IMG/VR virus record: IMGVR_UViG_3300027582_000004
Length of the DNA: 58,680 bases
From: an uncultured virus (IMG/VR IMGVR_UViG_3300027582_000004)
Lineage: Duplodnaviria; Heunggongvirae; Uroviricota; Caudoviricetes
Strand: one strand, 5' to 3'
A program made the translations under genes and the position numbers. Of the stretch, positions 2,626-45,000 are shown in pieces (the first letter of the stretch is position 1; every line of letters begins with the position of its first letter). The notes below the pieces were generated by a model. That model was given only the letters and a program-made list of their open reading frames with translations, was not told where the DNA came from and made no database searches.

Positions 2626-2656
2626 ATTAACTATTCATCAATATAAGGAAATTAAG

Positions 2657-8073: not shown

Positions 8074-8468
8074 AAACTAAAGGTTTGTACATACTTAAAG
8101 ATGATGATTATGTACCTTATAATTTACCAATGGGTAAAGTGATTTTATGTGGTGTGCCTGGAGCATTTACACCAGGCTGCACTAAAAGACATCTGCCAGG
8201 ATTTGCAAAGAATTTAGACAAGTTAGATGCTAAGGTTGTGTTTGTTGCGGTTAATGATCCGAGTGTCATGCATGCATGGAATGTATTATATGGTCATCCT
8301 CACATTGATGCAGTCGCAGATCCATTAGCTGTATTCAGTAAATATATGGGTAAGGATGTTGACTTTGGTGATTATATGGGTATTAGATGTAAACGATATG
8401 CTATGCTTATAGAGGATGGTGTATTTGTAAAAGAATATGCAGATCCGTTTATTGAAGGTGTATTATGA
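8064..8468 (+). CDS. peroxiredoxin (Prx5/type II redoxin)
   Basis: VPGAFTPGCTKRHLPG, VAVNDPSVMHAW, RCKRYAMLIEDG. Confidence 0.9.
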   Translation: MGLETKGLYILKDDDYVPYNLPMGKVILCGVPGAFTPGCTKRHLPGFAKNLDKLDAKVVFVAVNDPSVMHAWNVLYGHPHIDAVADPLAVFSKYMGKDVDFGDYMGIRCKRYAMLIEDGVFVKEYADPFIEGVL

Positions 8469-9130
8469 TACCAGGCATTGCAGAGTATGTAGATGTTGAT
8501 CCTCAGCATGAATTATTACTTGACCTGTATGAAAAAGTAAAAGGTGTAAGGGCTGGGGAGGACTTTAATGTTTTTGGTAAGACACCATTTGAGAGTTATT
8601 CGTTAGAATATAATATGACTGGTAAGGATACTGGTTATGAAGAAATATATGACCCTATCTTATCTCAGCACAGAATGGTACATCCACATTATCAGTTTAG
8701 ATCAACTGGATTTAATACTGCTGATAGTACAGAGAAAGATGTATTCCCTCATACCGACATAGATCAGAATAGAGAACATAGTCAAGGGTATAATATCATA
8801 TATCCTGTACTTGGAGCAAGTCGTTTAGATTATTATGAAACACTAGAAGACGAAATATGCCTACCTGAAAAGAACGCTCAAGGATATTATTACTATCATG
8901 AGTTTAAAGCACAGAGTCAGATGGGTCAAGGCACACCAGAGTTTGAAAAGTTTTTAGCTGATCGTAAGATTGGTGAGATCATTATTGATAAGCCTTGTCT
9001 TATTGATACAGAAGTAATGCATAGAGTAATTATTACAGAGGCACCCAGATGTGCATTTGTGACAAGATGGAATAATATACCACCTATTGACTTCCATTCG
9101 TTTAAAGAAAGAGTTGAGTCTATATTATGA
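8465..9130 (+). CDS. putative Fe(II)/2OG oxygenase (DSBH fold)
   Basis: PHTD...LIDTEVMHRV...PRCAF. Confidence 0.55.
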   Translation: MIPGIAEYVDVDPQHELLLDLYEKVKGVRAGEDFNVFGKTPFESYSLEYNMTGKDTGYEEIYDPILSQHRMVHPHYQFRSTGFNTADSTEKDVFPHTDIDQNREHSQGYNIIYPVLGASRLDYYETLEDEICLPEKNAQGYYYYHEFKAQSQMGQGTPEFEKFLADRKIGEIIIDKPCLIDTEVMHRVIITEAPRCAFVTRWNNIPPIDFHSFKERVESIL

Positions 9131-9609
9131 ACTGGCAAACATCATATACTATAAATGATGATTTAAAAGAAAAAATATCTAATATATGCAATAAAAAATT
9201 AGAAGGTGAGCCAGACGATCAAGAAGTATGGCATAGAACATCTCATATAACTTTAAATTCCTACACGTGGTCCTTTTATAAAGCAGAGGGGCTTAACGAA
9301 GTTAAGGAACAACTTAAAATAATTACAGGCTTAGATACAATATATGAGCATGGATATACATGTATATGGAGATACAACCAAGAGTTTCCAAAGTGTCCAA
9401 TACATATAGATCATGAAGCTCAACATAAAGGATCTCTTTGTATATCTTTGTCTGGGTACCATAATATATTTTTACATGATATAAAAACAAAAGAAAAACT
9501 AGAAAAGATTACTGTGAAAGATAATAGTATTATGTTTATAAACAACTCAAAGTATTATCATAGCGTAGAAGGTAACGGCGATCTGTGGATACTAGGAGTA
9601 AAGAAGTGA
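9127..9609 (+). CDS. putative cupin/2OG oxygenase
   Basis: PIHID...FINNSKYYHSVEG. Confidence 0.5.
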   Translation: MNWQTSYTINDDLKEKISNICNKKLEGEPDDQEVWHRTSHITLNSYTWSFYKAEGLNEVKEQLKIITGLDTIYEHGYTCIWRYNQEFPKCPIHIDHEAQHKGSLCISLSGYHNIFLHDIKTKEKLEKITVKDNSIMFINNSKYYHSVEGNGDLWILGVKK

Positions 9610-10160
9610 GAATAGTTCCGTATATAAAAGATTCAAAGCCTACTTATGAGGAACCAGATCAATGCCATGATGCCTTTCTGCAACTACAGGTAGAGAAAGA
9701 CACTGATAGATTATCAGACAACTATTCTTATAAAAATTTAAACTTAGATAGAATGGTAATGTTTAACTTTGTATTTGATGGAAACAATCCAGTTTTATGT
9801 TCAGGTTGCGAGACCATATATCCTGGTGTTGTAAGAGTTATGTCTAGGTATTACCATTATAAAAATTATAGAACAGATGGTACGTCTATGTTTGAGAAGG
9901 TGGATAACTTTAAAGAGCTAAATTACTGTGTCGACAACCTTGATGCTCCTCTTATAATTTGGACACGTGAATTCAGTAAAGGTTTCTTTACTAAACTCAA
10001 AAGAGCACGCCCTGATATATTTGAAGATTGGCAAGTGTATCCAGATAAACTACAGATAGGAAGCCCACCTTTAAAGAAAGCAAATAATCTACAGTATGTA
10101 TTTTATAAAGGCGATATTAACTATCTACGCAACCCACAATATGAAGACGGTACTCCATAG
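9606..10160 (+). CDS. hypothetical protein, possibly GNAT-like fold
   Basis: GTGA overlap with the upstream stop; VVRVMSRYY and LIIWTRE weakly suggest an acyltransferase fold. Confidence 0.4.
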   Translation: MRIVPYIKDSKPTYEEPDQCHDAFLQLQVEKDTDRLSDNYSYKNLNLDRMVMFNFVFDGNNPVLCSGCETIYPGVVRVMSRYYHYKNYRTDGTSMFEKVDNFKELNYCVDNLDAPLIIWTREFSKGFFTKLKRARPDIFEDWQVYPDKLQIGSPPLKKANNLQYVFYKGDINYLRNPQYEDGTP

Positions 10161-10554
10161 AAGCATTTACAAATGTATGTTTCTTTCTGGTGTCGACTAG
10201 ATAGTGAGAACCATCTGCCGGATACCTGCTCACAACATCATCTATAACAAAAAAGTTATTCTCGTTAGTAAGTAATGGTATATGCATTCTTTGAGTAGGG
10301 TCACGGTGATATGTGTAGCATGACTTAGGTGCTAACTTCATAAGCCTCGATCTATACATTCCTAATGAATCTAATACAGAATTGGTATATGGCAGATCAT
10401 ATGCATATACATTAAAATCTTGTTCTGTATTAACAAGTTTAGTCAGACGACCTTCCCCACCAACATTATCTTTTGTAACCTGTAAGGACAATTGTTCTTC
10501 ATACTCAGGTAAGCCCTGTAGTTCTAATAGTATATGTTCTATGTCTATGCGCAT
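10117..10554 (-). CDS. Asp/Asn beta-hydroxylase-like Fe(II)/2OG oxygenase
   Basis: RSRLMKLAPKSCYTYHRD...RMHIPL...HTFVN...RLHIV; likely start MRIDIEH. Confidence 0.75.
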   Translation of the reverse strand: MRIDIEHILLELQGLPEYEEQLSLQVTKDNVGGEGRLTKLVNTEQDFNVYAYDLPYTNSVLDSLGMYRSRLMKLAPKSCYTYHRDPTQRMHIPLLTNENNFFVIDDVVSRYPADGSHYLVDTRKKHTFVNASMEYRLHIVGCVDS

Positions 10555-10967
10555 ACTGTTAATTCTTTCACATTGTATTCTTGAATAAGAACCCATTCGA
10601 TAACATCTATCACATAATCTAAAGGCATCTTTTCAACATCTTTATGTGCTGATCTTTCAGTATCAAAGTAACCAAAGTTCAGACACGTTGTTTTCTTACC
10701 AGCTATGAACAACTGGTTATTAGCTTCTCGCAAGGCTCTTTTCTCTACAGCATATTTGTGTAGATATGTAAAATCACTTGCGTGAGATCCTATGTTAATG
10801 ATACGTTTATTAAGAGCTGCTGCTTTGTATAGCATATCTACTTGTTCAAAGCCATCATGTTTACAATTAATGAATATATCGCATTCTTCTAATGTAGATA
10901 CAGTATCATATTTTTGTTTTAATGCTTCACCTAGACCTCGTCTAGTACCAGTAATATAAAATTTCAT
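10545..10967 (-). CDS. minimal short-chain dehydrogenase/reductase
   Basis: ITGTRRGLG, IINIGS, YAVEK (YxxxK). Confidence 0.75.
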   Translation of the reverse strand: MKFYITGTRRGLGEALKQKYDTVSTLEECDIFINCKHDGFEQVDMLYKAAALNKRIINIGSHASDFTYLHKYAVEKRALREANNQLFIAGKKTTCLNFGYFDTERSAHKDVEKMPLDYVIDVIEWVLIQEYNVKELTVCA

Positions 10968-21407: not shown

Positions 21408-21586
21408 AGAAAAAAGTTAAAGAGGATGCACCAACAAATTCAATAGCACATGGTGGTGTTGATATGGCTCCTAATACAGGTCCAAGAGTAAAAGAAATAT
21501 CTGTAACAGATAAGCGCAGAAGAAAGGATAAACATCCGGTTCTACTTAAAAGGTTCCGTAAGTTTATAAACCATCAAGATGATTAA
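21404..21586 (+). CDS. hypothetical protein
   Basis: ATGA overlap; VKEDAPTN. Confidence 0.6.
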   Translation: MKKKVKEDAPTNSIAHGGVDMAPNTGPRVKEISVTDKRRRKDKHPVLLKRFRKFINHQDD

Positions 21587-22025
21587 ACTTTACATCGCAC
21601 TTTTTATTCTTAGTATGATGGCTGCTGTTGGTTATGCTGGAAAATATTACTATGATACCACACAAGCAACGATAGCTACACTGAGAGAGAATAATGTCAA
21701 GCTAGTAAATGTAGCGGAAACTCTACAGAATACAGTTGAGACTATGGAAGCTGATGCTAAAAGAAATGAAGAATTAAATCGTAACCTTAGTAAGAGGTTA
21801 CAGCAATCGTCAAAACACCTTGATAAACTAAGAGGCGTCTTGGCTAAAATTGATCTAACTATGGAAGCAATCCAAGATCCAGAAGGCTTGGAAGAAAGAG
21901 TGAACAATGCGGTTAACAGACTTATCAAAAGAATTGAAAGCGAAACATCTCCTGATCCTATCACCGCTGATGCTGATGGGGTGTCTGGGGAGTCAAGCGG
22001 AACCGATAGTAGCAGTAAAGACTGA
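21579..22025 (+). CDS. putative inner-membrane spanin (Rz-like)
   Basis: N-terminal TM helix plus long coiled coil; overlaps a lipoprotein gene. Confidence 0.65.
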   Translation: MIKLYIALFILSMMAAVGYAGKYYYDTTQATIATLRENNVKLVNVAETLQNTVETMEADAKRNEELNRNLSKRLQQSSKHLDKLRGVLAKIDLTMEAIQDPEGLEERVNNAVNRLIKRIESETSPDPITADADGVSGESSGTDSSSKD

Positions 22026-22302
22026 ATACGTCGAACAAAGAATTCCTATTCAAGAAGCACCTAAAGGTGTTAACTTTCCACCTGTGGAATGGTTTATCTT
22101 GACGCCTGATAATATAGAAGCAAAGATTGCTGAGATCGAAGCATCTACTGGTTCAGCTGTACTCTTTGCCATTACACCAAAAGGATATGAAAACCTTGCA
22201 ATTGGTATTGGTGATCTTCGCAGATACATTAAAGATGAGCAAGCAATAGTTGGTTACTATGAGGAAGCACTAGCTCCTGAAGAGCCTGCAAAAGAAGAAT
22301 AG
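21907..22302 (+). CDS. putative outer-membrane spanin lipoprotein (Rz1-like)
   Basis: Lipobox LMGC followed by a Pro-rich region; start may be TTG 21934. Confidence 0.65.
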   Translation: MRLTDLSKELKAKHLLILSPLMLMGCLGSQAEPIVAVKTEYVEQRIPIQEAPKGVNFPPVEWFILTPDNIEAKIAEIEASTGSAVLFAITPKGYENLAIGIGDLRRYIKDEQAIVGYYEEALAPEEPAKEE

Positions 22303-26001: not shown

Positions 26002-26161
26002 GATATTCTATGCAGTCAAAGGTCACTTGATACCATTAACATACACATCTAATGATATAGAAAGTATGTACAATAGTTATTTTAAAAGATTATGGAATAA
26101 CCATGAGAGGCTAGTTAATTGCCAATTAGACTTTGAAGCCCTATGGAAGAATGCAATTTAA
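25973..26161 (+). CDS. hypothetical protein
   Basis: SD AAGGAG, TTG start. Confidence 0.55.
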   Translation: MTNGTKRQNEIFYAVKGHLIPLTYTSNDIESMYNSYFKRLWNNHERLVNCQLDFEALWKNAI

Positions 26162-26868
26162 AAATTTGTTATCTGTACATGCTTTTCAAATGTTGGGAAG
26201 GACCATAAGTCATCAAGATTTCCATTGCGGCGACTTTCTATTAGTATATCTCTGTTTAAGACATCTGGATGTGTTTTTCTGTCCATATTAGGATTTGGAT
26301 AACCGATCCCAACAATACACTTTGCAAATGTGTTTTTAATACCTAATACATCACCTTCTCTAAATGCAGAACAACAGCCTGTTCTATATCCTAATAAATT
26401 GGCTGTAAGTAATAATTGACCTATAGCTATTCCTGTACCAATATCCATTATTCTATTTTTAACTATATGAGTATACAGATCCTCTTTATGGGTCTCATCA
26501 TCAACAATCATATGAGTTCTTGCTCTGGCTTTAGACTGATCCCAATCGTCACAGAAAGCTATTATTAAATTTGCATTTAGCTGAGAATTAGTTACACAGT
26601 ATTCATCTGGTGTATCTCCATTACTACTTATAGGAATACTATCATCATACACAGCAAAGTATTTTGTTCTGCTATACACTTCCTCTATTTTAGACTGGTT
26701 AGAAGACCAATATATTTTGTAATTAGTTTCATTCTGTTTCGTAGGTGCATATTGAATAGAGGAGAGCATCAAATCGATGTCTTCTTGTGGGATATTTACA
26801 TCACTTTTCCAGTTTCTTTGACACGGATTAGTGTTTTTTATAGCTGAGAAAAGCTCATCTTTATCCAT
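26158..26868 (-). CDS. nitroreductase-family flavoprotein
   Basis: CQRNW, YAPTKQN, MDIGTGIAIGQLLLTANLLGYRTGCC, VGIGYP. Confidence 0.8.
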   Translation of the reverse strand: MDKDELFSAIKNTNPCQRNWKSDVNIPQEDIDLMLSSIQYAPTKQNETNYKIYWSSNQSKIEEVYSRTKYFAVYDDSIPISSNGDTPDEYCVTNSQLNANLIIAFCDDWDQSKARARTHMIVDDETHKEDLYTHIVKNRIMDIGTGIAIGQLLLTANLLGYRTGCCSAFREGDVLGIKNTFAKCIVGIGYPNPNMDRKTHPDVLNRDILIESRRNGNLDDLWSFPTFEKHVQITNF

Positions 26869-31733: not shown

Positions 31734-31963
31734 ACATCTTCACTACACTTAATCTAAGAACTGAGTTTGAGTCAATCGTTGCGTTTGGTAAAAAATATGA
31801 TTTGCCTAACCACAATAGTGATATAAATAGTCTTGTATTCTTTGTTAATGAAGGGTATAAGAAAAATAGATTCCGCAAACATTATGATCGTGCACTTGAA
31901 ATAGCGGAGAGTATATTGAAAGAACACGATGGGCAAGACACTAGAAAAAGGCTCGATATTTGA
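31730..31963 (+). CDS. hypothetical protein
   Basis: ATGA overlap. Confidence 0.6.
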   Translation: MNIFTTLNLRTEFESIVAFGKKYDLPNHNSDINSLVFFVNEGYKKNRFRKHYDRALEIAESILKEHDGQDTRKRLDI

Positions 31964-32270
31964 AGCTGCAGACAAAGACGGTGATGGAGTAGTCACTGAC
32001 GCAGAGTTTGCACAACACGAGAGAATGATTCGCCTAGAAAATGAAGATAAGAAAGAAGACGCTCAAAGAGCCATGACTTGGTTTGCATTAATGGGTATGT
32101 TATTATATCCGTTTGCTGTTATGGGTGCAATTGCTCTCGGAGGTATGGAAGCTGCAAAGGTACTAGGTACTATGTCTGCTACATACTTTGTATCCGTTGC
32201 TGGTATTGTTGGCGTATTCTTTGGTTCACAAGCATACTCAAAAGGTAAAAGCGACACTCCTAAAAAATAG
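31929..32270 (+). CDS. EF-hand plus 2-TM membrane protein (holin-like topology)
   Basis: DKDGDGVVTDAE EF-hand loop followed by two hydrophobic helices. Confidence 0.6.
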   Translation: MGKTLEKGSIFEAADKDGDGVVTDAEFAQHERMIRLENEDKKEDAQRAMTWFALMGMLLYPFAVMGAIALGGMEAAKVLGTMSATYFVSVAGIVGVFFGSQAYSKGKSDTPKK

Positions 32271-32278
32271 GTTATATA

Positions 32279-33067
32279 ATGAAAAAAATGATATATCAAG
32301 TCTACACTGGCAAGTCCTCTAGGCTATATGATTGGTGTACTGATAGTGTAGAAGCATATGCAAAAAGAATTGGTGCTGACTACATACAGCTTAACGTACC
32401 TGTTCTTAAAATTAAACCAGATCCATTTGTTACTAATAGAAGTAAAGAGTCGTACGAGAAGTATGGTGGCTTTTTACCTATCTATGAGAAAGAGAATGCA
32501 TTTAAATACTTTGATAGATATGATCAGATTGCTATTATTGATGCAGACATCTATATCAGAGACACAGCTCCCAACATTTTTAAAGAACTAAAACCAGAAA
32601 CAGATTTTGCTGGTGTATATGAACGTGAGATGCCAGTCACGCCACAGTATGGTGCTAAGATCCGTAACTACTCTCACATGCAATATGGTAAGTTTGAGAA
32701 GCACTTTGACTTTAATCATGCATATGGTGCTCCGTTTATGAATATGGGTATGATGGTTATGAATAATTCCTTTAGTAAATATCTTGGTGGATTATCACCA
32801 AAAGACTGGCTTATGCAACCGGTCTTTAAAGATTTTATTGATGGCTTAGGAGCATGGAAATGGTCAACAGATCAGACATTACTTAATTGTTTTATACGCT
32901 CTAAGAATATGAATGTACAGCATCTAGGTTATGAGTGGAATGGTTTATACACAGCTATCCCAGATGATAAGATAAAGGACTGCCACTTTGTCCATTTCTT
33001 CTTAAAAGATAAACTACCTGCTGCCGGTGAAAATGTAGAGGAACTAAAACGTATATGCCAAATTTAA
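32279..33067 (+). CDS. GT-A glycosyltransferase
   Basis: IIDADIY, NMGMMV, TDQTLLN, HFVHF. Confidence 0.75.
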   Translation: MKKMIYQVYTGKSSRLYDWCTDSVEAYAKRIGADYIQLNVPVLKIKPDPFVTNRSKESYEKYGGFLPIYEKENAFKYFDRYDQIAIIDADIYIRDTAPNIFKELKPETDFAGVYEREMPVTPQYGAKIRNYSHMQYGKFEKHFDFNHAYGAPFMNMGMMVMNNSFSKYLGGLSPKDWLMQPVFKDFIDGLGAWKWSTDQTLLNCFIRSKNMNVQHLGYEWNGLYTAIPDDKIKDCHFVHFFLKDKLPAAGENVEELKRICQI

Positions 33068-33738
33068 TCTTACAACATTATGATGGTATCTTAGGTGAAC
33101 TAGAAAAGGCATCTGTGGCTAACATAAAAGCATATGCTAAAATGGTTGGTGCTGATTATAGACTTATTGTAGGAAGACCATTTAGAAAATGGTTAGAACC
33201 AGCTCCTCAGAAATGTTATATGATTAATGAAGAATATGACGAATACGATGATGTTCTTATGGTAGACATTGATATGTTTACACCAGTTGGTATGGAGATT
33301 AATGTATTTGATCAAGTTGGTGTTGGCATGTATAATCCTGTACAACAAATGCTGCACCGCAAAATAGTTAATATGTATCCAGATATTGCCAGTGCTGACT
33401 CTCCTTATTGGGGTGGTGCGATATACAAGATGGGTAAAGAGTTAAGAAAGACATTAAGATCAGCTGGCGAATCTTTTACTAATGATGACTGGCTCCAAAA
33501 CTTTACTCACTATCACTTTGCAGATGAGGGTATCTTTCATGCTTATGCTACAAGAGCAATGATACCTTTTACTAAAGATATGATTATTGATCAGAAGTGG
33601 TGTTACTGTAGTTACTTACCTAATGTTGAAGATGCTGGATTTATACACATGAGAACTAAGGTTACACCTCAAGGACCTAAAAGAGAAAAAATAGAAAACT
33701 ATCGTGATCTGGTAAAAAGAGGTATTATCAATGGCTAA
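33055..33738 (+). CDS. GT-A glycosyltransferase
   Basis: GADY, VLMVDIDMF, DEG. Confidence 0.65.
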   Translation: MPNLILQHYDGILGELEKASVANIKAYAKMVGADYRLIVGRPFRKWLEPAPQKCYMINEEYDEYDDVLMVDIDMFTPVGMEINVFDQVGVGMYNPVQQMLHRKIVNMYPDIASADSPYWGGAIYKMGKELRKTLRSAGESFTNDDWLQNFTHYHFADEGIFHAYATRAMIPFTKDMIIDQKWCYCSYLPNVEDAGFIHMRTKVTPQGPKREKIENYRDLVKRGIING

Positions 33739-34528
33739 TCTAATTTATCAAGTATGGGCAGGAGAACTAAGACCAGCTTGTAAACATAGTTCTAAGCTAA
33801 TGAAAGAATACGCTGATCGAATTGGTGCTGATTATAGATTAGATATTGATCCTAATATAGCATCAAATTCGTGTGATGTACCTATGTACTTTGAGTGGCT
33901 TAATCCTATGTTGGATAAAAGATTTTTAGAATATGACAAAGTGCTAGTTGTTGATTTAGATGTATTTCCTACACCAGATTGCCGTAATATATTTGAAGAG
34001 GAGATTGCTGATGTTGGTATTTGTACAGAACCATTCCAAGGTAAGTATAGAGCAAAATCTGTAGTTGGTGGTTCTATCTGTTCTGCTAATGATGAAATAT
34101 GGTCAAAGCATTGTAAAAGACTTTATAATGTAGATTTACCTAGAGATGATGAAGGGTATCTAAAAGTATATAATGCCGGTATGGTGCTATTCACTAAAGA
34201 AGGTTTACTCAAGTGTATAGAAAAGTTTGTAGAGTTTCAACAATATATTGATGCTATGAGAAGTTGTAAGCTAGGTAGATTTTATACTGTAGATCAGAAT
34301 TATTTCCATGCAATGATGGTAGCACATTTAGATTATACTGAAATGGATAATGATTGGAATTGTTATATACATTATGTAAGAGGACCTTTAGGTATTACTA
34401 ATCCTATACACGATGGTAGAGGTAGTGATCCACAGCTTGTACACATACAGTTAAGTGGCGCTGATTACTTTGAAGATGATATGATAGATAGAATAACTAA
34501 TAAACCACAAGGACAATGGAATTTATGA
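33731..34528 (+). CDS. GT-A glycosyltransferase
   Basis: VVDLDVF, YNAGMV, DQNY, WN. Confidence 0.75.
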   Translation: MANLIYQVWAGELRPACKHSSKLMKEYADRIGADYRLDIDPNIASNSCDVPMYFEWLNPMLDKRFLEYDKVLVVDLDVFPTPDCRNIFEEEIADVGICTEPFQGKYRAKSVVGGSICSANDEIWSKHCKRLYNVDLPRDDEGYLKVYNAGMVLFTKEGLLKCIEKFVEFQQYIDAMRSCKLGRFYTVDQNYFHAMMVAHLDYTEMDNDWNCYIHYVRGPLGITNPIHDGRGSDPQLVHIQLSGADYFEDDMIDRITNKPQGQWNL

Positions 34529-35094
34529 TTAATGCTGAATTAGGGCATGTGACAACCTTAAAGGAATTTTATAATGAAATCCGGTCACAACAAGAAGCCG
34601 CTCACGGAGATGATTATTGTGCTCAACATGATGCTTTAGTAAATCTTTTTAATAAAGAAGGTTGTACTTCATACAAAGAAATCGGTACACACCAAGGTGG
34701 TACAGCAGCTGCAGTTATGCAAACTGGTGTAGAATATATGGAACTGGTTGATATTGATATGGGTAAGTATCGTAAGTTCCTAGCTCCTATTGCTTCTAAG
34801 TATTGTAGAGATAATGATATTGAGTTAGTTGTAAAAGAAACAGATTCACTAGGGCTTGGTGCAATTGGTAAAGTGTGTGATGTAATGCTTATCGACTCTG
34901 TACATAAGCGACCCCATATGGAAAAAGAATTAGAAATGCATGCTCAATTTGCAAAAAGATATATTGTATTCCATGATACTAGTGCAGTACCTGCTCTATA
35001 TGCAGGTATCGTTGAATTTTGTAGACTAAATCCTTTTGAGATTATTGAACGTGGTACTGAGAATGTAGGTTATACAGTTATTAAGAGAAAGTAA
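34516..35094 (+). CDS. class I SAM methyltransferase (Methyltransf_24-like)
   Basis: EIGTHQGGT, LIDSVH, IVFHD; start may be 34525. Confidence 0.75.
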   Translation: MEFMINAELGHVTTLKEFYNEIRSQQEAAHGDDYCAQHDALVNLFNKEGCTSYKEIGTHQGGTAAAVMQTGVEYMELVDIDMGKYRKFLAPIASKYCRDNDIELVVKETDSLGLGAIGKVCDVMLIDSVHKRPHMEKELEMHAQFAKRYIVFHDTSAVPALYAGIVEFCRLNPFEIIERGTENVGYTVIKRK

Positions 35095-35801
35095 TGAAAG
35101 CCTTTGTTATTACAATTGATGGACACTCTGAGTCTGAAAGGGCTTCGCAAGTCTGTATTGAATCATCTTGGAAAGTTAAGAATGAATTTTCTATAAACAG
35201 ATATGAGGCATCTACACCGATAAATGCAATAGATCAGATGAAAGAATTTGATATAGATTGGAATTATCCATGGCAAGGTAAAGTACACGACTTTGCTTCA
35301 GGTCTCATTAAGAGTGCATATCAGACAGCAAATCCAAAAGCACGTATTGCTTGTGCTATGAGCCATTTTAGATTATGGACAGACTGCTATGACATTGGAC
35401 AAGACTTTCTTATACTAGAACATGATGCATACTTTACCGCAGGGCTCAAACAATCAAAAATAGATGCAATACTTGCTTCAAGATTTGATGTTATTGGTAT
35501 TAATAATCCTTTAGGTGCTACTCGTAAATCACAACAATATTATGATCAGATGCAATCAAGTAAGAATGACGTATTAGATGTTCCTATAATTGATGCATTT
35601 AATATACCACAAGGGCTTGCTGGAAATAGTGCCTATATACTTAAACCAGAGGGAGCTGAAAGGCTTCTCAGATTAGTTTACCAATATGGCTTATGGCCCA
35701 ATGATTCTATTATGTGTAGACAATTAATGCCTAGTCAACTAGGTGTTACTAAAACGTCCTATACTGCAATACAACATACACGGAGTACGACTACACAATG
35801 A
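35094..35801 (+). CDS. GT25-like glycosyltransferase
   Basis: MKAFVITI, ACAMSHFRLW, LILEHDA, AYILKPEGA, WPND. Confidence 0.8.
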   Translation: MKAFVITIDGHSESERASQVCIESSWKVKNEFSINRYEASTPINAIDQMKEFDIDWNYPWQGKVHDFASGLIKSAYQTANPKARIACAMSHFRLWTDCYDIGQDFLILEHDAYFTAGLKQSKIDAILASRFDVIGINNPLGATRKSQQYYDQMQSSKNDVLDVPIIDAFNIPQGLAGNSAYILKPEGAERLLRLVYQYGLWPNDSIMCRQLMPSQLGVTKTSYTAIQHTRSTTTQ

Positions 35802-36448
35802 AGGCTTTTGTAATTACAATAATGAGTGAAAATAAATCCGTTGAAATGGCGCAGAGATGTTGTGCAACATTTAAGAGACATAACCCTGATCACGAAATAG
35901 AAGTATTTACTGCTATTACTCCAAAAGATCAACCATTTAGTTTGGCTGATAAATGGAAAATACCATTAAGAAATTTTATGGAAAAGTATTCCAGATATGA
36001 TAGATGTGTTTCTGCCTTTCTGTCACATATGTCTTTATGGAAAAGATGTATTGTTCTGAATGAACCAATCATTATATTTGAACACGATGCCATTACAGTC
36101 GCACCTATACGCATACCTTATCCTAGAGGCATTATTAATATAGGTAAGCCTTCTTATGGTAAGTTTAAAACTCCTCAACTAGGTATAGGTCCTTTGATCT
36201 CAAAGCAATATCTACCTGGTGCTCACGCTTATGTTATCACACCACAATATGCTAAGTTACTATGCGAGATGGCTATAATGGAAGCTGGACCAACAGACGT
36301 ATATATTAATAACAATAGATTTGCTGGGCTACAAGAAATGTATCCATGGCCAGTAGAATGTGATGATAGCTTTACTACGATACAGAACGAGACTGGTTGT
36401 TTGGCTAAACATAATTATGGCGGCGGTAGTTCCTATGAAATCATCTAA
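35798..36448 (+). CDS. GT25-like glycosyltransferase
   Basis: MKAFVITI, FLSHMSLW, IFEHDA, GAHAYVITP, PTD. Confidence 0.8.
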   Translation: MKAFVITIMSENKSVEMAQRCCATFKRHNPDHEIEVFTAITPKDQPFSLADKWKIPLRNFMEKYSRYDRCVSAFLSHMSLWKRCIVLNEPIIIFEHDAITVAPIRIPYPRGIINIGKPSYGKFKTPQLGIGPLISKQYLPGAHAYVITPQYAKLLCEMAIMEAGPTDVYINNNRFAGLQEMYPWPVECDDSFTTIQNETGCLAKHNYGGGSSYEII

Positions 36449-37049
36449 ACTTTTTATTACAGGTTGTAACCAAACACACTCTTGGATGTTACCTTGGTTT
36501 AAAGAAAACTTTTACAAACATAATCCAGATGCAGAGTTAATGGTATTTGACTTTGATGTATTGTATACAGATATAGAAGGATGGTTTAAGAAGCCAGCAG
36601 TAATGCTCCATGCTTCTACTCTTGCCGAGAAAGTATGTTGGCTCGATACTGACTGTGAAGTAAAGGGTAACTTAGATGGCATTTTTAATTATATTCTACC
36701 AAATAAACTTACAATGGCTATTGATCAACCATGGACTACAAGAAGACCAGATCGTGGTAACTGGTACAATTCTGGCGTTGTAGCATTTCAAGGTCAACCA
36801 ATTATTTTATCTGAATGGCATAGACATATTGCAGAAAAAATTACTAATGAAGTTGGTGATCAAGAAGTATTAAATTGGATGCTAGGTGGAGACACACTTA
36901 GGGAATTACAATATATTGCACATATGCCTCGACTATATAACACACTAAGAATAGATTTTATTGATAATACAGCCCCTAAAAACCATAAGATAGCACACTG
37001 GACTGGTCACAAGGGAAAAGAAAAGATAAGAGAATTGATGAATGGTTGA
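36435..37049 (+). CDS. GT-A (GT8-like) glycosyltransferase
   Basis: GWFKKP, WLDTDC, YNSGVV, GDQEVLN, HWTG. Confidence 0.75.
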   Translation: MKSSKLFITGCNQTHSWMLPWFKENFYKHNPDAELMVFDFDVLYTDIEGWFKKPAVMLHASTLAEKVCWLDTDCEVKGNLDGIFNYILPNKLTMAIDQPWTTRRPDRGNWYNSGVVAFQGQPIILSEWHRHIAEKITNEVGDQEVLNWMLGGDTLRELQYIAHMPRLYNTLRIDFIDNTAPKNHKIAHWTGHKGKEKIRELMNG

Positions 37050-37638
37050 TGTTGCACACGTAATTGGTAATGGTAAATCCGCAGGATACTTTGATCACAA
37101 TGCAAAGGGAGTGAGAATTACATGTAATCTGCCTCCTATGGCTGTGCAGAATGTATTTGCAACTGTTATGGTAGACTTTAAGATGATGAGAGCTATTCAA
37201 GAGGGTAGTGTTCAGGTACCAGGCAATTGGGTTTTAGGTCAAAGGCCTAAGATGCATATGGAACAAAATAGTTCATTCCATATTAGACACGCAAGGCAGA
37301 TCCGTGAATTTTATACTACCCTACCTGAATATGTAAGAAACTATACAGATTTTAATTGCGGGCATATGGCAACACATTACACTTGTTCTAAGTTCACACC
37401 TAAAGAGTGTCATATGTATGGATTTAATTCTATCTTTGACTTTGATGTAAGTAGCAGTACTGATCTATACATGGAGTCTGATCGTAGTGATATGAATAAT
37501 AATAGACTTGTGAACAACTGGCGAGGTGTATGGCCAAATATATTCAAGGAATTTAGTGATACTGAATTTAAGATATATCACAAGCATGATCAAATTAAGT
37601 TTAAATTACCAGAAAATGTTAAAATAGTCATACCATAG
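37042..37638 (+). CDS. sialyltransferase/Maf-like Rossmann protein
   Basis: HVIGNGKS, TCN, NCGH, MYGF pattern resembling CST-II/DUF115. Confidence 0.45.
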   Translation: MVDVAHVIGNGKSAGYFDHNAKGVRITCNLPPMAVQNVFATVMVDFKMMRAIQEGSVQVPGNWVLGQRPKMHMEQNSSFHIRHARQIREFYTTLPEYVRNYTDFNCGHMATHYTCSKFTPKECHMYGFNSIFDFDVSSSTDLYMESDRSDMNNNRLVNNWRGVWPNIFKEFSDTEFKIYHKHDQIKFKLPENVKIVIP

Positions 37639-38350: not shown

Positions 38351-38498
38351 AAACATGACTGAGCAAGAGAAAGAAGTCAATAAAGACATTCTTTTATGGG
38401 CTGCACAACAGCCTGCTGAAAAGTTACAGGGCAAGCTTGGTGATAAAAGACTTATTGCTGAAGCATATTGGAAAGAAAAGCTAGGAGATACATTATGA
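38334..38498 (+). CDS. hypothetical protein, 54 aa
   Basis: SD AGGAG, MEFNPENM...; ATGA overlap with the next gene. Confidence 0.6.
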   Translation: MEFNPENMTEQEKEVNKDILLWAAQQPAEKLQGKLGDKRLIAEAYWKEKLGDTL

Positions 38499-38953
38499 AA
38501 ACACTAACACTTATTACTGCACTAGTTGCAGCCACCCCTGCAGTAGCGGATAAAGTTACTGCAAATGTTACAGATCGTTTTAAAACTGTCTATGAAGATG
38601 TCCCTTACACAAAGAATGAATGTGTATTGGTTGATAAGCCTATATATGGTACAACAGTTAAAGAAGGTGATGCCGCTGGTGGCGCCCTACTAGGTATGAT
38701 CCTAGGTGGACTTGTTGGTAAAGGTGTTTCTGGTGACGACGGCGGTGCTGCAGCTGGTGCAGTAATCGGTGGTCTAATTGGTGCGGATAAAGGTTCTAAG
38801 CCTCAGCGCAATAGACGAATTGTTGGTTATGAGACAAAGCAGCAATGCACTGATGTCACATATTATCGTTCAGTAGAGCGTACGGTTTATGATTACTCTG
38901 TAATGGAATTCGAATATAAAGGTGAAGACATTACTCTCACCTTTCGTAAGTAA
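38495..38953 (+). CDS. exported glycine-zipper 2TM protein (YcfJ-like)
   Basis: Signal peptide; GALLGMILGGLVG...AAAGAVIGGLIG; flanking Cys residues. Confidence 0.8.
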   Translation: MKTLTLITALVAATPAVADKVTANVTDRFKTVYEDVPYTKNECVLVDKPIYGTTVKEGDAAGGALLGMILGGLVGKGVSGDDGGAAAGAVIGGLIGADKGSKPQRNRRIVGYETKQQCTDVTYYRSVERTVYDYSVMEFEYKGEDITLTFRK

Positions 38954-38959
38954 ACAATA

Positions 38960-39036
38960 GGATACGTAGCTCAGCAGGATAGAGCAAGTGCCTTCTAAGC
39001 ACTAGGTCAGAGGTTCGAATCCTCTCGTATTCGCCA
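38960..39036 (+). tRNA. tRNA-Arg(UCU)
   Basis: Cloverleaf: GGATACG/CGTATTC acceptor, agtgc-CTTCTAA-gcact anticodon arm, GGTTCGAATCC, encoded CCA. Confidence 0.95.
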
Positions 39037-39053
39037 TAATAAAGGAAAAGAAA

Positions 39054-39416
39054 ATGGAATTAGCATTCCTACTTTTTGTACTAATGGGTACAAATGCCGA
39101 ATTAGAAAAAGCTAATGCAGGGTTAGAACAACTTAATATTGAGGTAATAGAACTTGCATTAGAAAATCAAGAGATGTCTGATGATATTGCTTTAATGCAA
39201 GCAGACATAGAAGCACTTAAAATTGCTGATGCCAAATTAAATGAAGAAATGAATGATTCGTTTATAAATCATGCAACATCAATTGCTCTTAACCATGCTA
39301 ATATAGCACATTGGAGAAACGAGCAAGATGAATGGCAAAAAAGATTCGCGCTTGATTTTCAAATCTATAAAGACGAGCACGGTATAGATCACATTAAAGA
39401 TGATCCTACTGAGTAA
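39054..39416 (+). CDS. coiled-coil protein with hydrophobic N-terminus
   Basis: SD AAGGA; lies between two tRNA genes. Confidence 0.65.
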   Translation: MELAFLLFVLMGTNAELEKANAGLEQLNIEVIELALENQEMSDDIALMQADIEALKIADAKLNEEMNDSFINHATSIALNHANIAHWRNEQDEWQKRFALDFQIYKDEHGIDHIKDDPTE

Positions 39417-39493
<77 letters not shown>

Positions 39494-39512
39494 ATAAAGA
39501 AAGGATATATTC

Positions 39513-39758
39513 ATGGTTGATGATATATTTGATTTTGGCTTTACAGCCGTTGATGAAGATGAATTAGAAACGGTTCAAGTCACACAGAAAAAAGCAGAGA
39601 ATACAGATGAGAGGTTGAATGGCCTCTATAATGCTATCGTACCTTTGTTAACAAATCTAAAGAAAAATCCAGAAAAGGATTATATTCTTTGGCCTAATCG
39701 TCTCGATAAGATAGAAGAATTCGAGACACTACTATTAAAAATTTACAAAGGAGGATAA
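39513..39758 (+). CDS. conserved phage hypothetical protein
   Basis: FDFGFTAVDEDE...PLLTNLKKNPEKDYILWPNR. Confidence 0.75.
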   Translation: MVDDIFDFGFTAVDEDELETVQVTQKKAENTDERLNGLYNAIVPLLTNLKKNPEKDYILWPNRLDKIEEFETLLLKIYKGG

Positions 39759-39759
39759 T

Positions 39760-39981
39760 ATGTTTACTGCAGGTATTATGATGTGTCTGCTAGGCGAACC
39801 AATGAACTATATAAATTGTTCTATTATACAATCTGACTTTAGATACCCAACAGAAGAAAGATGTTGGGACGCTATAAACAATCAGATGGCTATGTTACCA
39901 TTTCAAGATTTATCTGATAGGTATCAGCCACGTTATGCACAATGTATTATGTGGATCGAACCTAAGGGTAATACAACTTAA
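39760..39981 (+). CDS. small Cys-containing hypothetical protein
   Basis: SD AGGAGG. Confidence 0.65.
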   Translation: MFTAGIMMCLLGEPMNYINCSIIQSDFRYPTEERCWDAINNQMAMLPFQDLSDRYQPRYAQCIMWIEPKGNTT

Positions 39982-39994
39982 ATAGGAATATATT

Positions 39995-40138
39995 ATGAAT
40001 TACAGTGAAAATGCTAAAAGATTAAAAGAGGCTTTGGCTTTGGATAATCTAAACACTAAATGGTCTCAAGCTGGTGATAACTACGTTAGAGTAGCACTAG
40101 AAATAAGACAAGAACAACTTGAAAGGAAAACAGTATGA
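39995..40138 (+). CDS. hypothetical protein, 47 aa
   Basis: SD AGGA; ATGA overlap with the next gene. Confidence 0.55.
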   Translation: MNYSENAKRLKEALALDNLNTKWSQAGDNYVRVALEIRQEQLERKTV

Positions 40139-40425
40139 CAAGTTTTATTATGGATTGGTGGAATTTAATAATGGATCACGAAAAAAATCCATTGGCAAAT
40201 ATCAAAGATTTAAGAGTAAGGCATCTTGTTATGCAGATCCTTGCTTGGATGTGGTGTATTGTCTTTACTGCAATGACTGGTACTTGGATGTATCTAGGTA
40301 TTAATATTCTATTTCATGCCCTATTACTATGTGGCGTTTTCATAACTGTATCAGTATTTGAAGCAGCTAAACGTAAGCCTCAAATCTTTTATACACTACG
40401 TGGTGAAGGAGGCGAACATGAATAA
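40135..40425 (+). CDS. 2-TM membrane protein
   Basis: NPLANI...RHLVMQILAWMWCIVF. Confidence 0.7.
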   Translation: MTSFIMDWWNLIMDHEKNPLANIKDLRVRHLVMQILAWMWCIVFTAMTGTWMYLGINILFHALLLCGVFITVSVFEAAKRKPQIFYTLRGEGGEHE

Positions 40426-40537
40426 GATAATGCTTGCAATCGTTATTGGGTTTCTACTAGCAGTAGGTACATATCAATGGAAAGATTGTTTAGGAGAAAA
40501 TTCATTTATGACTTGTGCAAGAATGTTAAATAAATAG
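40418..40537 (+). CDS. small membrane protein, 39 aa
   Basis: SD AAGGAGG, TM segment, two Cys. Confidence 0.55.
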   Translation: MNKIMLAIVIGFLLAVGTYQWKDCLGENSFMTCARMLNK

Positions 40538-41299
40538 GTGTTTAAATTGTTTAAATCTCAATATGAATATCGTATGGAGTATGAACAGGTATATTCTGAA
40601 GAAGTTGAACCACAATTAAACTCAGCTGAAGATTGCCACCACCATGCGATGTTTATACAAGGCAATCTTCACTTTGATAATGGTCGTACATATGTATTTA
40701 AAGATGACTTTGGAAGATATGTATCTACCTTTGTAAGTCAGTATTCTGATATTATGGAAAGAAACTTAGAGCCAGGTGTAAAAGATGGCGTACTGGCTCT
40801 ACAGAAAAAAGGCTATCTAACCTTTACCAGTTGCCAAGGTCATGACGATTCTAGGCACAGGTACATTGGTGTTGTATTTAATACAAAAGAACAAAAGGCA
40901 CAGTTCATGAAGGAGCTGAAAGCCTTAAAGTGCGATACACATTTTTATGATAATGTTATTAATACAGAAGAAAGACCCTGTAAGGAAGTCCCTTGGTGGT
41001 CTGAAGGTGGCATTACATTACATATTGTTTATGATGATCAAACTTATAATAACACAAGTCAGATGGAACGGCGAGAAAAGCCTTACACTGACAGCGATCT
41101 AACTAAATTTTGGAACATACAAATGTGGCGCAACTATGCACACTATGAATGTATTGTTTTTAGTTTTGGTTATCCTATGTTAGAAAAGACTTTATGGCAA
41201 AGAATACATAAGCATTTGTTTTATAATCATTATAGAGTTACCAGTTCATATTACTCTTTTCTAAATAAAGTTAATAAATTATCAGAGTACCTAGCCTAA
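40538..41299 (+). CDS. hypothetical protein
   Basis: GYLTFTSCQGH motif. Confidence 0.65.
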   Translation: MFKLFKSQYEYRMEYEQVYSEEVEPQLNSAEDCHHHAMFIQGNLHFDNGRTYVFKDDFGRYVSTFVSQYSDIMERNLEPGVKDGVLALQKKGYLTFTSCQGHDDSRHRYIGVVFNTKEQKAQFMKELKALKCDTHFYDNVINTEERPCKEVPWWSEGGITLHIVYDDQTYNNTSQMERREKPYTDSDLTKFWNIQMWRNYAHYECIVFSFGYPMLEKTLWQRIHKHLFYNHYRVTSSYYSFLNKVNKLSEYLA

Positions 41300-41316
41300 C
41301 TGGTGAATAGAAAAGA

Positions 41317-41324
41317 TATAAATA
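41317..41324 (+). promoter_or_regulatory. late promoter of the exported-protein operon
   Basis: TATAAATA. Confidence 0.7.
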
Positions 41325-41358
41325 AGGCATATACAATCTTTTTTGACTGGATTTTAAT

Positions 41359-41940
41359 ATGTTACAACGACTAGGTTACCTAGCGGTTTTGATCTTTCTA
41401 ATTGCCGCTAATACTTTACATGCACAAGATGCGACAGATGATATTATCTACACAGATAATACCAATGATAGCACTGTAGATAGCACAAGTCGATCTACAA
41501 CGACTGTTAAGTCACCTCCACCTTCTGCTATTTCCCCCTCAATCAATTCTGCTAACTCTGACCTCTGTACTACAGGTGTGACGGGTGCTGTTCAAACTCA
41601 GATACTTGGTATTTCAGCTGGTAAGATGGTTCGTGATATGAACTGTGAGAAGCTAAAGAATGCTAAGGTATTATATGATATGGGTATGAAGGTGGCAGCT
41701 GTTTCAGTAATGTGCCAAGATGAACGTGTCTTTGATGCTATGATGAATGCAGGTACTCCTTGCCCATTTGATGGTAAGATTGGTGCTGAAGCAAAGGCAG
41801 CATGGTTGGCAAATAAAGAATTACAACCAGACACAGATACTGGTTCACTCAACCCTTTAAAGGACTTAGATGAAGATGAGAAATCAACTTTATTTGGCGG
41901 CGCTACTGTTGGGGGTCTCCTCCTCCTACTGTTACTCTGA
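41359..41940 (+). CDS. exported Cys-containing protein with C-terminal TM anchor
   Basis: Signal peptide; four Cys; PPPSAISP; C-terminal GGLLLLLLL. Confidence 0.7.
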   Translation: MLQRLGYLAVLIFLIAANTLHAQDATDDIIYTDNTNDSTVDSTSRSTTTVKSPPPSAISPSINSANSDLCTTGVTGAVQTQILGISAGKMVRDMNCEKLKNAKVLYDMGMKVAAVSVMCQDERVFDAMMNAGTPCPFDGKIGAEAKAAWLANKELQPDTDTGSLNPLKDLDEDEKSTLFGGATVGGLLLLLLL

Positions 41941-42784
41941 TACGACGTACGGAGGAACAACTAACGCAGCCATAGCTGGCCTATCTTGGGGTATGGGAAC
42001 TATCTTACCTGACACAAGTGGCCCTTATATTAGCGTACAGATCCATGGTCTGACGTATAGGTATAAAATGGTTAAGGATCCAAGTGCGGATGCTACAGTT
42101 TATGTGCGTAATGAAGATGCAGTAAATGGTGGTTATGTGTTTGAAGAAGTAGATGATTGGGATGGAATTCCTGGAGGTACAGTACAGAAATATTTTAGAT
42201 TTCCGTATATAGATTCCTCAAGATGGGGTAATGGATCAATGTCTGTAGAAGGCGATGGTCAGATTGAAGATCCTTTTATGGTTTATAATTACAGACAAGT
42301 CATTGATGAAGAGCTTCAGAAGTGTTATCTAACACCATTAGCTGATCCTCAATGCCCTGGATTTGATGATGCGCTTCTAAATTATCTAAATACTATGGAA
42401 GAGCCTACAGCAGACGATCCTTTTTATGATGAATGGGTACAAGCTAACTTATCATTAGATGAGGAAGTAGAAACTAAAGAAGAAATCGAAGTAGAAGAAC
42501 CTGAAGAGGAAGAAGCTAACTTTGAAAAAAGAATGGGAGCAGAAAGTTCAATTGATGAAATGGTTAATACTACAGAACAAGCTTCTATATTGGCAGCTCT
42601 GGCACAAGTGCCAAAAATTGAGCCTTACTATATAATAACAATACCAGGTGGTGAATATAACGATGTGTTACAATTTGAAAGTACAGATATACCTGACAAC
42701 CCTCGTGCGATGCGGAGCTTTGCGACTGATACAAAACATCAGTCAATGGTTCGGTCGCAATATAATAAAGAACAACAGGAGTAA
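41870..42784 (+). CDS. exported acidic protein
   Basis: Signal peptide; CYLTPLADPQCPG; Glu-rich linker. Confidence 0.7.
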   Translation: MKMRNQLYLAALLLGVSSSYCYSDTTYGGTTNAAIAGLSWGMGTILPDTSGPYISVQIHGLTYRYKMVKDPSADATVYVRNEDAVNGGYVFEEVDDWDGIPGGTVQKYFRFPYIDSSRWGNGSMSVEGDGQIEDPFMVYNYRQVIDEELQKCYLTPLADPQCPGFDDALLNYLNTMEEPTADDPFYDEWVQANLSLDEEVETKEEIEVEEPEEEEANFEKRMGAESSIDEMVNTTEQASILAALAQVPKIEPYYIITIPGGEYNDVLQFESTDIPDNPRAMRSFATDTKHQSMVRSQYNKEQQE

Positions 42785-42787
42785 CTT

Positions 42788-43297
42788 ATGTTCAAACAAA
42801 CACTAACTTTAGGTGCTATCGGTGTTGTGTGTTCAGTAGGGGCAATTGCTCAAGCTAACAACACACCAATTACTGGCAACGTATCATCTAAATGTTCAAT
42901 TTTCACAGACACATCTGGTGTGTATGGTAACCCTACACCTGATGAACTAAGCACTAAAACAGCTGACGGTGGTATAGATCCAGTAGTCCGTTATGATGTT
43001 ACAGTTGCTGACAAATATAAAGCTAAGATTTCTTGGCCTAACTCATTCTCAACAGCACCTAATCTTTCAGATGGAGTAAACTGGGATGGAGAAACAACAG
43101 TTAAGAGCCATTCTGTATCAGGTATGTCTGCTTATGAAGCAGCTAAAGTAGAGTACGACAACGTAACAGAGTTTGATTTAACACTTGCAGGATCTACATG
43201 GTTCTCAGTTGAGTCAGAAGCTAAGTATGGTGTTGGTAAATCACTACCAGGTGGCGAATACAAAGCTAACGTAGTTGCTGAGTGTATCGCAGATTGA
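42788..43297 (+). CDS. fimbrial/pilin-like exported subunit
   Basis: Signal peptide; PITGNVSSKCSI start and LPGGEYKANVVAEC end, as in chaperone-usher pilins. Confidence 0.55.
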   Translation: MFKQTLTLGAIGVVCSVGAIAQANNTPITGNVSSKCSIFTDTSGVYGNPTPDELSTKTADGGIDPVVRYDVTVADKYKAKISWPNSFSTAPNLSDGVNWDGETTVKSHSVSGMSAYEAAKVEYDNVTEFDLTLAGSTWFSVESEAKYGVGKSLPGGEYKANVVAECIAD

Positions 43298-43394
43298 AAT
43301 GGTGGCAGTAGTTCATCCAGTAGCTCCAGCGGCAGTATGACGTGTAGAAGGCTAGGTGGGTGTCCGTAAAACTGTACGAAGGTAGAATATTAAG

Positions 43395-43772
43395 ATGATG
43401 AAATATAAATTCGCTGCGGCACTAATACTATTTGCTAATAGTGCCGCAGCTCATGAACTGACACCAACCTATCCTGAGATAGAACCAGCTTATGTTGAAG
43501 GTGTATCAGTTATAAAAATGAAGATGTGGAATAGACGAAGTGATGCAAGTTATTACGAAATAAATGTGTATGATGATGAATGGAAATCAGTACCATTTGC
43601 AGCACCAGAGAAAGTTATGAAGATAGGGTATCTGGAACATAAATCTTTTGAGTTGTATGTAAGAGATGCTGATTGTGACAAGGTAACTTATATCTGTACC
43701 ACTTCTAAGCAATTGAAACAAGATGTGCAATCGACAGGAATTAAATCAAGGATTTGTTCGAGAGTAAAGTGA
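43395..43772 (+). CDS. putative periplasmic pilus chaperone-like Ig domain
   Basis: Signal peptide; HELTPTY...MWNRRSDASYYEINV pattern similar to the PapD N-domain. Confidence 0.5.
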   Translation: MMKYKFAAALILFANSAAAHELTPTYPEIEPAYVEGVSVIKMKMWNRRSDASYYEINVYDDEWKSVPFAAPEKVMKIGYLEHKSFELYVRDADCDKVTYICTTSKQLKQDVQSTGIKSRICSRVK

Positions 43773-43780
43773 GATGACAT

Positions 43781-44185
43781 ATGAGAATACTAACACTATT
43801 GTTTATTATGATTGGAGTTTCAGCACACGCTGATTCATCATCATTAAACTTACAATTGCCAGGATCTGGTGGTAATTATCAATCGGACAAGTTTAGAGCC
43901 GGTGAACTAGATTGTACTAATGCAATTGGATCAGCAACAAACTTAGAGTTTGGTGTAACTGGTATTATTGATAAAGAGTATTATGATCCTCAAAGAGATT
44001 TTACTGTAGGTCAACAAACTGATGTAGGTGTATTTGCTAGAATAACAATACCACTTGGTAAGAGAACTAAATCAAGAATTGATTGTAACAGATTATATGA
44101 ATTGGAATTAAGAAAGAAACAATTAGAAGTTATGAAACTCGAGAAAGAGTTACAGCAACTTAAAGAACTAACATTCGAGGATTAA
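43781..44185 (+). CDS. exported protein with beta hairpin and C-terminal coiled coil
   Basis: Signal peptide; NLEFGVTG...VGVFARITIPLG; two Cys. Confidence 0.65.
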   Translation: MRILTLLFIMIGVSAHADSSSLNLQLPGSGGNYQSDKFRAGELDCTNAIGSATNLEFGVTGIIDKEYYDPQRDFTVGQQTDVGVFARITIPLGKRTKSRIDCNRLYELELRKKQLEVMKLEKELQQLKELTFED

Positions 44186-44186
44186 A

Positions 44187-44882
44187 ATGGCAGAGTTTGA
44201 ATTTGCGGGTACAACTTTTAGAGGCGGTAAGATGTTTGCAATTCTTACAGCACTCTCAACCTTAGGCGGTGGTGCCTGGGGTGGCTTTGAAATCTATAAA
44301 GATTATATGGATATGAAAGAGATTATCCAAGAGATTGACATTGATGAAATTAATGCAGCTAATGCGTTACAAGTTCAGAAGTTGGAAGATGCTATTGGTT
44401 ACACTCAAGACATTAAACAGGATTTAAAAGCCGACATCGATAGGTTAGAGGCTCTGGTCGAGTCACTGGAGGGTTCTGTAGAAACATCAGAGAGTAAAGT
44501 GCGTTCATTGCGTACAGAAATATATGCAAAGATAGATGCCTTTGAAGAAAGGTTCCGCCTTACACTTAAAGATAACCAAGATGTAATGGCTAACTTGAGA
44601 GACAAGATCGCAAGTGAGCTAAGTCTATCAGAAGCAAGAATTAAAACAACTCAATCTGATATTGGTACTACACTAGAAGGTGTTCGTACTGAGATGAATA
44701 CTGTACAGAATAGTGTTACTAAATCAATTCGTGAAGTCGAATCTGTTATACGAGAGACAGAAAAAGATGTACGAGACACTATGAGAGCTACAGAAGAAAG
44801 AATAGAGCTGGATCAATCTAATTTAGAAGAAAGAATGCGTACTCAACTACAAGAAGCATTGGATAATCCACTATCTAATTAG
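44187..44882 (+). CDS. membrane-anchored long coiled-coil protein
   Basis: N-terminal TM ...TLGGGAWGGFE; heptad repeats; ends ALDNPLSN. Confidence 0.7.
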   Translation: MAEFEFAGTTFRGGKMFAILTALSTLGGGAWGGFEIYKDYMDMKEIIQEIDIDEINAANALQVQKLEDAIGYTQDIKQDLKADIDRLEALVESLEGSVETSESKVRSLRTEIYAKIDAFEERFRLTLKDNQDVMANLRDKIASELSLSEARIKTTQSDIGTTLEGVRTEMNTVQNSVTKSIREVESVIRETEKDVRDTMRATEERIELDQSNLEERMRTQLQEALDNPLSN

Positions 44883-45000
44883 TGTAACATATATGTAACA
44901 GAATAGAAGAAAGTGCATTTATTTGCACTTTTTTTGCATTTAGGGGTTTACATCTGTGTTTGGATGTGTTATAAGAGTTATAGAAACAATAATTAAGGAA
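44883..45000 (+). promoter_or_regulatory. TGT-N12-ACA box, palindrome and early promoter cassette
   Basis: tgtaacatatatgtaaca; aaagtgca/tgcacttt; TTTACA(44947)-N17-TATAAG. Confidence 0.85.

Follow-up and report, generated by a model that had tools for sequence, protein, structure and literature searches.

An usher is taken to be required for the donor-strand pili of Gram-negative bacteria, and in the classical chaperone-usher geometry the chaperone strand runs parallel to the last strand of the subunit. Donor-strand filaments that form without an usher (Pyrodictium cannulae, archaeal bundling pili, Bacillus TasA) come from hosts that have no outer membrane. Pilin, chaperone and usher are given as the minimal parts in PMC10104325, on CupE. 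Curli export operons are described in pelagiphages and are absent from their hosts (PMC9599517, PMC7029224); 'sibling capture', superinfection defence and lysis timing have been proposed for phage curli, and no clumping was reported for Melnitz (PMC7029224, PMC9599517, PMC9004378). Here we describe a cassette of six genes, A to F, in a 58,680-nucleotide stretch of DNA from an uncultured virus of the Caudoviricetes (IMG/VR IMGVR_UViG_3300027582_000004), the whole of which is referred to as the window. The cassette is a real, conserved and unnamed system that consists of two modules, C-D-E and A-B-F, and its predicted action corresponds to the front half of the chaperone-usher pathway, to which it does not belong. 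We favour, at a probability of about 0.5, the reading that two mobile envelope modules have been fused here into a late-expressed unit, by which the infected cell acquires a fibre or adhesin.

The window belongs to the genome of a T4-like phage, with genes for gp32, a late coactivator, RNase H, ribonucleotide reductase, the baseplate and gp5 among its open reading frames (ORFs), and marine and estuarine runs contain close matches to it. The cassette comprises six + strand ORFs spanning 41359-44882, and the following features were assigned.

41317..41324, + strand: T4-type late promoter motif TATAAATA, a motif match that is also present near the start of A in 58 of 119 related loci
41359..41940, + strand: A, 193 aa; signal peptide, Ser/Thr/Asn-rich arm, Cys-bracketed glycine-rich beta-hairpin 70-96, helical domain and, at the C terminus, a hydrophobic tail; may anchor the A-B-F module in the membrane or form a small pore for it
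41870..42784, + strand: B, 304 aa; signal peptide, jelly-roll head 24-145, Cys motif, acidic helical stalk and conserved C-terminal segment; candidate adhesin
42788..43297, + strand: C, 169 aa; pilin-like Ig sandwich, N-terminal extension I28-x-G30-x-V32, invariant C36/C166; candidate fibre subunit
43395..43772, + strand: D, 125 aa; PapD-like chaperone of a single domain, whose C-terminal strand (116-123) is predicted to complete C; C101/C121 invariant
43781..44185, + strand: E, 134 aa; signal peptide, Cys-clamped amphipathic beta-hairpin (53-63, 82-92), variable loop and C-terminal helix; candidate oligomeric outer-membrane pore or anchor
44187..44882, + strand: F, 231 aa; N-terminal membrane segment, variable-length coiled coil and C-terminal NPL motif; candidate inner-membrane-anchored periplasmic rod
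44910..44931, no strand assigned: inverted repeat 3' of F, predicted on the - strand and followed by a T run on the + strand; candidate terminator, for which the evidence is weak because two were found in the window against 1.9 in shuffles

The structure predicted for C (predicted local distance difference test, pLDDT, 89.7) is all beta, with residues 24-35 lying outside the sheet, and its top Foldseek matches were CfaB (E 7e-4), the type 1 pilus tip chain F, the PapG pilin domain, archaeal cannulae and bundling pili. VIA-align ranked generic Ig domains above pilins; the fimbrial subunit named in a preliminary description of this DNA is upheld in its Ig-like sandwich and its Foldseek ranking. 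SCPU (PF05229) is present in 39% of the members of one Atlas cluster near C. Prediction of a C+D complex gave a score of 0.79 against 0.00 for the best control, with a partner pLDDT of at least 86 and at least 96% of contacts shared between runs; the mark set for such scores was reached by 116 of 157 solved pairs and by 2 of 215 mismatched pairs. In the modelled contact D117-123 lies parallel to C162-168 and antiparallel to C36-38, so that D, earlier described as PapD-like, docks on C in the geometry of a chaperone on its pilin. Donor-strand complementation of C by its chaperone is thus predicted, although the model may reflect likeness to solved complexes. Across homologues, positions 28, 30 and 32 of C are I or V, G (73/73) and V or I, and positions 116, 118 and 120 of D are V or I, S or T, and I or V. 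D has 125 aa and its full-length homologues 112-156 aa, and a PapD-like N-terminal domain alone is suggested for it; longer forms had no separate search.

Compared with the chaperone-usher pili (CFA/I CfaA-CfaB, type 1 Fim, P pili, archaic Csu/CupE), the cassette shares an exported Ig-like subunit with an N-terminal extension and a chaperone strand predicted to be parallel to the last strand of the subunit. It differs in that D is one domain of about 105 residues, whereas PapD-like chaperones have two domains; in that the Cys pair of C joins the first and last strands (36/166), whereas CupE1 has C41-C85 (PMC10104325); in that the C-D pair is always accompanied by a small hairpin protein; in that Pfam and NCBIfam give no match; and in that the usher is missing. 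The absence of an usher, claimed in the preliminary description, was borne out: no match was found among the window ORFs scanned (the longest ORF in the window is 672 aa), in any of five related phage records (long records carrying the cassette, 66-100% complete), or within about 7 kb of nine bacterial loci discussed below. A search with PF00577, which was positive in 1 of 14 controls, found no usher in seven of these nine bacterial genomes, whose completeness was not established; in the other two it lay about 0.44 Mb and about 0.92 Mb from the locus.

The pelagiphage and Melnitz curli (type VIII secretion; CsgG, CsgF, CsgA/B) resemble the cassette as envelope export modules of marine phages that are swapped between phage families (PMC7029224, PMC9599517, PMC9004378). 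They differ in having CsgG, of which there was no match in A-F by Pfam or in the five related phage records, and in being built of amyloid repeats rather than an Ig-fold subunit with a chaperone; curlin-repeat subunits likewise had no Pfam match in A-F. From the usher-free donor-strand filaments the cassette differs by its PapD-like partner and its hairpin protein. No description of the cassette, or of an usher-free chaperone-pilin trio, was found in the open full-text literature, a coverage that excludes subscription journals and supplements.

The preliminary description treated the six genes as a single system, and this has to be revised: each of the modules, C-D-E and A-B-F, is found in loci that lack the other, so that the six genes do not form a single invention. 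A matches 13 cultured-phage records, five of which were inspected. In the pelagiphages Mosig, HTVC202P and HTVC023P, the gene after A encodes a large exported protein; next, with or without one small gene in between, comes a short protein that has a membrane segment and a coiled coil and, as F does, ends in NPL. In CRP-810 the gene between A and F is a different one, and RSP15 has A alone. In profile comparisons the tails of the large exported proteins match B (95%, 51 columns) and the third genes match F (99%); both alignments are small, and one locus (L213) stands in both and may carry the score. OmpA and 'lysozyme' labels on the CRP-810 homologues of A and F were not borne out by their sequences. 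The B homologue of L213 (L213:5198-6445), an A-B-F locus without C-D-E, has four tandem Cys repeats of the motif that is single in B, and the A protein of RSP15 has long Asn/Gln/Gly repeats.

The other module is found through E, which matches Vibrio and Erwinia phages. The Erwinia-phage E in turn matches 205 of 50,697 phage records (Vibrio 181, Klebsiella 13, Serratia 6, Erwinia 3 and two others). In five such phages that were inspected, E adjoins a Cys-bracketed subunit and a small exported protein, and A, B and F are absent there; hidden Markov models (HMMs) confirmed C and D in three Vibrio phages and not in the Erwinia and Klebsiella phages. E-like clusters (4,274 of 7,999 candidates scored) are common in marine viral sequence. 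The C-D-E core, three genes in about 1.4 kb, recurs in T4-like, T5-like, rV5-like and jumbo phages and in some bacterial chromosomes, and this recurrence of an usher-less core suggests a way to build surface fibres that has not been described before.

Among close relatives the full cassette is conserved. We collected 191 viral loci, comprising 33 with C, the best 80 of 186 with D (two overlapping the C set) and, from at least 596 with A, the best 80; A is present in 188 of the 191, 121 loci are non-redundant, and 91 of these reach at least 4.3 kb past A. The gene order A-B-C-D-E-F was found in 90 of these 91, the remaining one being A-B-F, and the 80 loci picked by A alone divide into 53 with all six genes, 1 with A-B-F and 26 that are too short. 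These loci are the closest relatives, and the counts therefore do not speak for distant ones. In 40 of the 91 loci, unrelated genes separate E from F. A small gene for a PagP-like beta-barrel adjoins the cassette or lies within it in 11 of the 121 loci (for example L016:7314-7652), and in seven its place is between E and F.

A survey of 401 bacterial genomes of one phylum, in which the centre genome G002 (a bin with phage contigs) was excluded from the count for E, detected E in nine. An iterated HMM search at these nine loci placed D next to E in eight and C in six, with no matches elsewhere among 1,013 reading-frame segments; two further loci have a C-like gene as judged by eye, and one locus is degenerate. 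The order is C-D-E-C' in five loci, one subunit being 73% identical to a Mesorhizobium record, and D-E-C occurs on a Vibrio record of second-chromosome size and on a Vibrio plasmid. The neighbours of bacterial C-D-E are housekeeping genes. Profile comparison of C with the bacterial and Vibrio-phage subunit set gave 95.6% in hhalign (E 1e-8), and only 9.5% with the subunits of the Vibrio chromosome, Klebsiella phages and Erwinia phages, which are therefore C-like by position and Cys pattern only. Because the C-D-E core is also bacterial it is not phage-specific, which qualifies the description's notion of a phage-built surface system. In the degenerate copy (L151:6212-7084, genome G348) the conserved Cys pairs are missing from the E-like and C-like genes, and D was not found there.

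A itself was detected in two of the 401 genomes, next to an exported low-complexity protein rich in Ala, Ser and Gly; in both (L243:6069-7656, genome G378; L244:4430-6241, genome G125) it stands between this protein and a second, small one that is also exported, an arrangement that may be a further undescribed set for fibre export. A pattern scan of species genomes returned six loci, all in metagenome-assembled bins (L120-L125; labels Melainabacteria, Bathyarchaeia, Rhodobacteraceae), one bin with four copies. These bins are probably misbinned phage, because the three loci inspected hold the whole phage-type cassette and phage-like neighbours.

Late expression rests on TATAAATA, which we take to be the T4 late promoter. 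Counted within the window, the motif is no more frequent than chance would give, with 12 matches against 9.0 ± 2.8 expected and 21 of 100 shuffles as high. Among non-redundant related loci, on the other hand, it lies within -120 to +80 of the start of A in 58 of 119, where 3.5 are expected, and the corresponding counts for B, C, D, E and F are 0/114, 0/111, 3/105, 0/102 and 0/98. Metatranscriptome contigs of run X1 span 40140-42035 and 42112-44248; the flanks are covered too and DNA carry-over is possible, and the contigs are therefore no evidence of transcription or transcript level.

That the six consecutive genes encode envelope-directed proteins agrees with a crude test consisting of an N-terminal hydrophobic 11-mer, a lipobox check and Cys in the mature part. 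Each of A to E has such an 11-mer (Kyte-Doolittle 1.87-2.97), lacks a lipobox and contains Cys in its mature part, and the test is also passed by 12 of 87 other ORFs in the window. F, earlier called a membrane-anchored coiled coil, has one modest hydrophobic segment from residue 16, a coiled coil and no Cys. The Cys pairs are invariant or nearly so across the family alignments. The amphipathic hairpin claimed for E was recovered, followed by a helix, with hydrophobic and polar columns alternating across 62 phage and bacterial rows.

In the mechanism that we consider likeliest, C-D-E would be a minimal donor-strand pilus system. Its three proteins would cross the inner membrane by Sec, as their hydrophobic N-termini suggest; D is modelled as lending its last strand to the open edge of C, and C subunits may then exchange this strand for the N-terminal extension of the next subunit, because the I-x-G-x-V and I-x-S-x-I patterns match. 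An oligomer of E hairpins may serve as the outer-membrane exit or anchor that replaces the usher. In the A-B-F module, A would be the membrane anchor and F a rod in the periplasm, and the module would serve to display B's jelly-roll head. The likeliest purpose would be a sticky infected cell from which progeny are freed beside new hosts, or masking from other phages, as in the proposals for pelagiphage curli. A more ambitious version is tentative and somewhat unlikely: C-D-E would be a new minimal class of Gram-negative pilus, present in bacterial chromosomes and acquired by several unrelated lytic phage groups, in which a one-domain chaperone passes donor-strand subunits to an outer-membrane pore of about a dozen copies of a 115-residue hairpin; late fibres on a doomed cell would catch the next host, and A-B-F would be a second undescribed export-and-anchor device. 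With its three genes, C-D-E offers a compact candidate for another assembly route, open to direct test, and the cassette is a second, non-curli candidate for the proposed 'sibling capture'; the presence of the core in cultured phages makes experiments possible.

Three other explanations were considered. An unlikely one is an internal envelope complex, without any external fibre, in which the F rod, the anchors A and E and a short C-D strut would brace the envelope for lysis timing or a superinfection block. The conserved late promoter would suit it, and F has the membrane segment and coiled coil of an inner-membrane spanin, late timing being a further likeness to the two-component spanins (Rz/Rz1). 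Linkage to lysis genes is partial: two families of endolysin-like genes occur within 3 kb, in 20 and 8 of the 121 loci. A small membrane protein is present in 43, and lysis timing has been suggested for phage CsgGF (PMC9004378). However, A-F include no lipoprotein or lipobox, the window has a separate Rz-like spanin pair of its own at 21579-22302, about 19 kb away, and F has no spanin family match in PHROGs. Most loci, many of which end early, have no annotated lysis gene within 3 kb, and a role in lysis would be senseless among bacterial housekeeping genes.

More improbable still is that C and D form a donor-strand polymer for which E is a mere anchor or terminator, exit being through a host pore or by release at lysis. 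The small size of E, with its two candidate strands, and the usher-like gene elsewhere in two of the nine bacterial genomes speak for this, whereas every C-D locus inspected includes E and the other seven genomes show no usher. The least probable explanation is virion decoration, in which disulfide-bonded fibres or jelly-roll knobs would fold in the periplasm and join particles at lysis. It would agree with the late promoter, with a modelled B head that resembles capsid, cement, turret and tail-knob jelly rolls (and also lectins), and with three Vibrio phages in which C-D-E follows a gene of 770-864 aa that may be structural; a search for a virion proteome of a carrier phage found none.

Family searches with the cassette proteins named little. 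A, C, D and E match PHROGs families of unknown function (A phrog_20531, E 6e-13). Pfam and NCBIfam gave no family name for A-F, with weak coiled-coil matches for F only, and nothing useful for the bacterial and cultured-phage homologues. Profile searches of the Protein Data Bank with A-E were likewise uninformative, a BFVD search with C gave an unnamed entry at best (E 1.4e-3), and tblastn of B, C and D against cultured phages gave no match. A and E share a layout of Cys, hairpin, Cys and helix, but no homology between them was detected (hhalign 3.9%). Longer fused forms of E numbered 0 among 8,000 candidates scored, which is weak evidence. The hydrophobic tail of A (175-193) is encoded by the same DNA as the signal peptide of B: at 41870-41940 the C-terminal Leu run of A and this signal peptide share DNA in two frames, and the overlap of about 70 bases is kept across relatives. 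The pelagiphage A proteins have neither the overlap with the next gene nor the hydrophobic tail.

Elsewhere in the window, 31822-32270 encodes a 113-aa membrane protein with an acidic EF-hand-like start, its own TATAAATA upstream and no Pfam or PHROG match; its family, to which the window gene was likened by eye, adjoins the cassette of relatives more often than any other (43 of 121 loci). A metabolic block at 3121-10967 and 26161-26868 includes a fatty-acid desaturase, two TauD, two Asp/Asn hydroxylase-like dioxygenases, an FMN reductase, a peroxiredoxin and a nitroreductase. A run of eight genes at 32279-37638, two of them for GT25 glycosyltransferases, probably serves host surface modification. 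More exported or membrane proteins are encoded at 2603-3025 and 38468-40537; among them are a small one that is porin-like, one with a glycine zipper and, immediately 5' of the cassette, several small membrane proteins.
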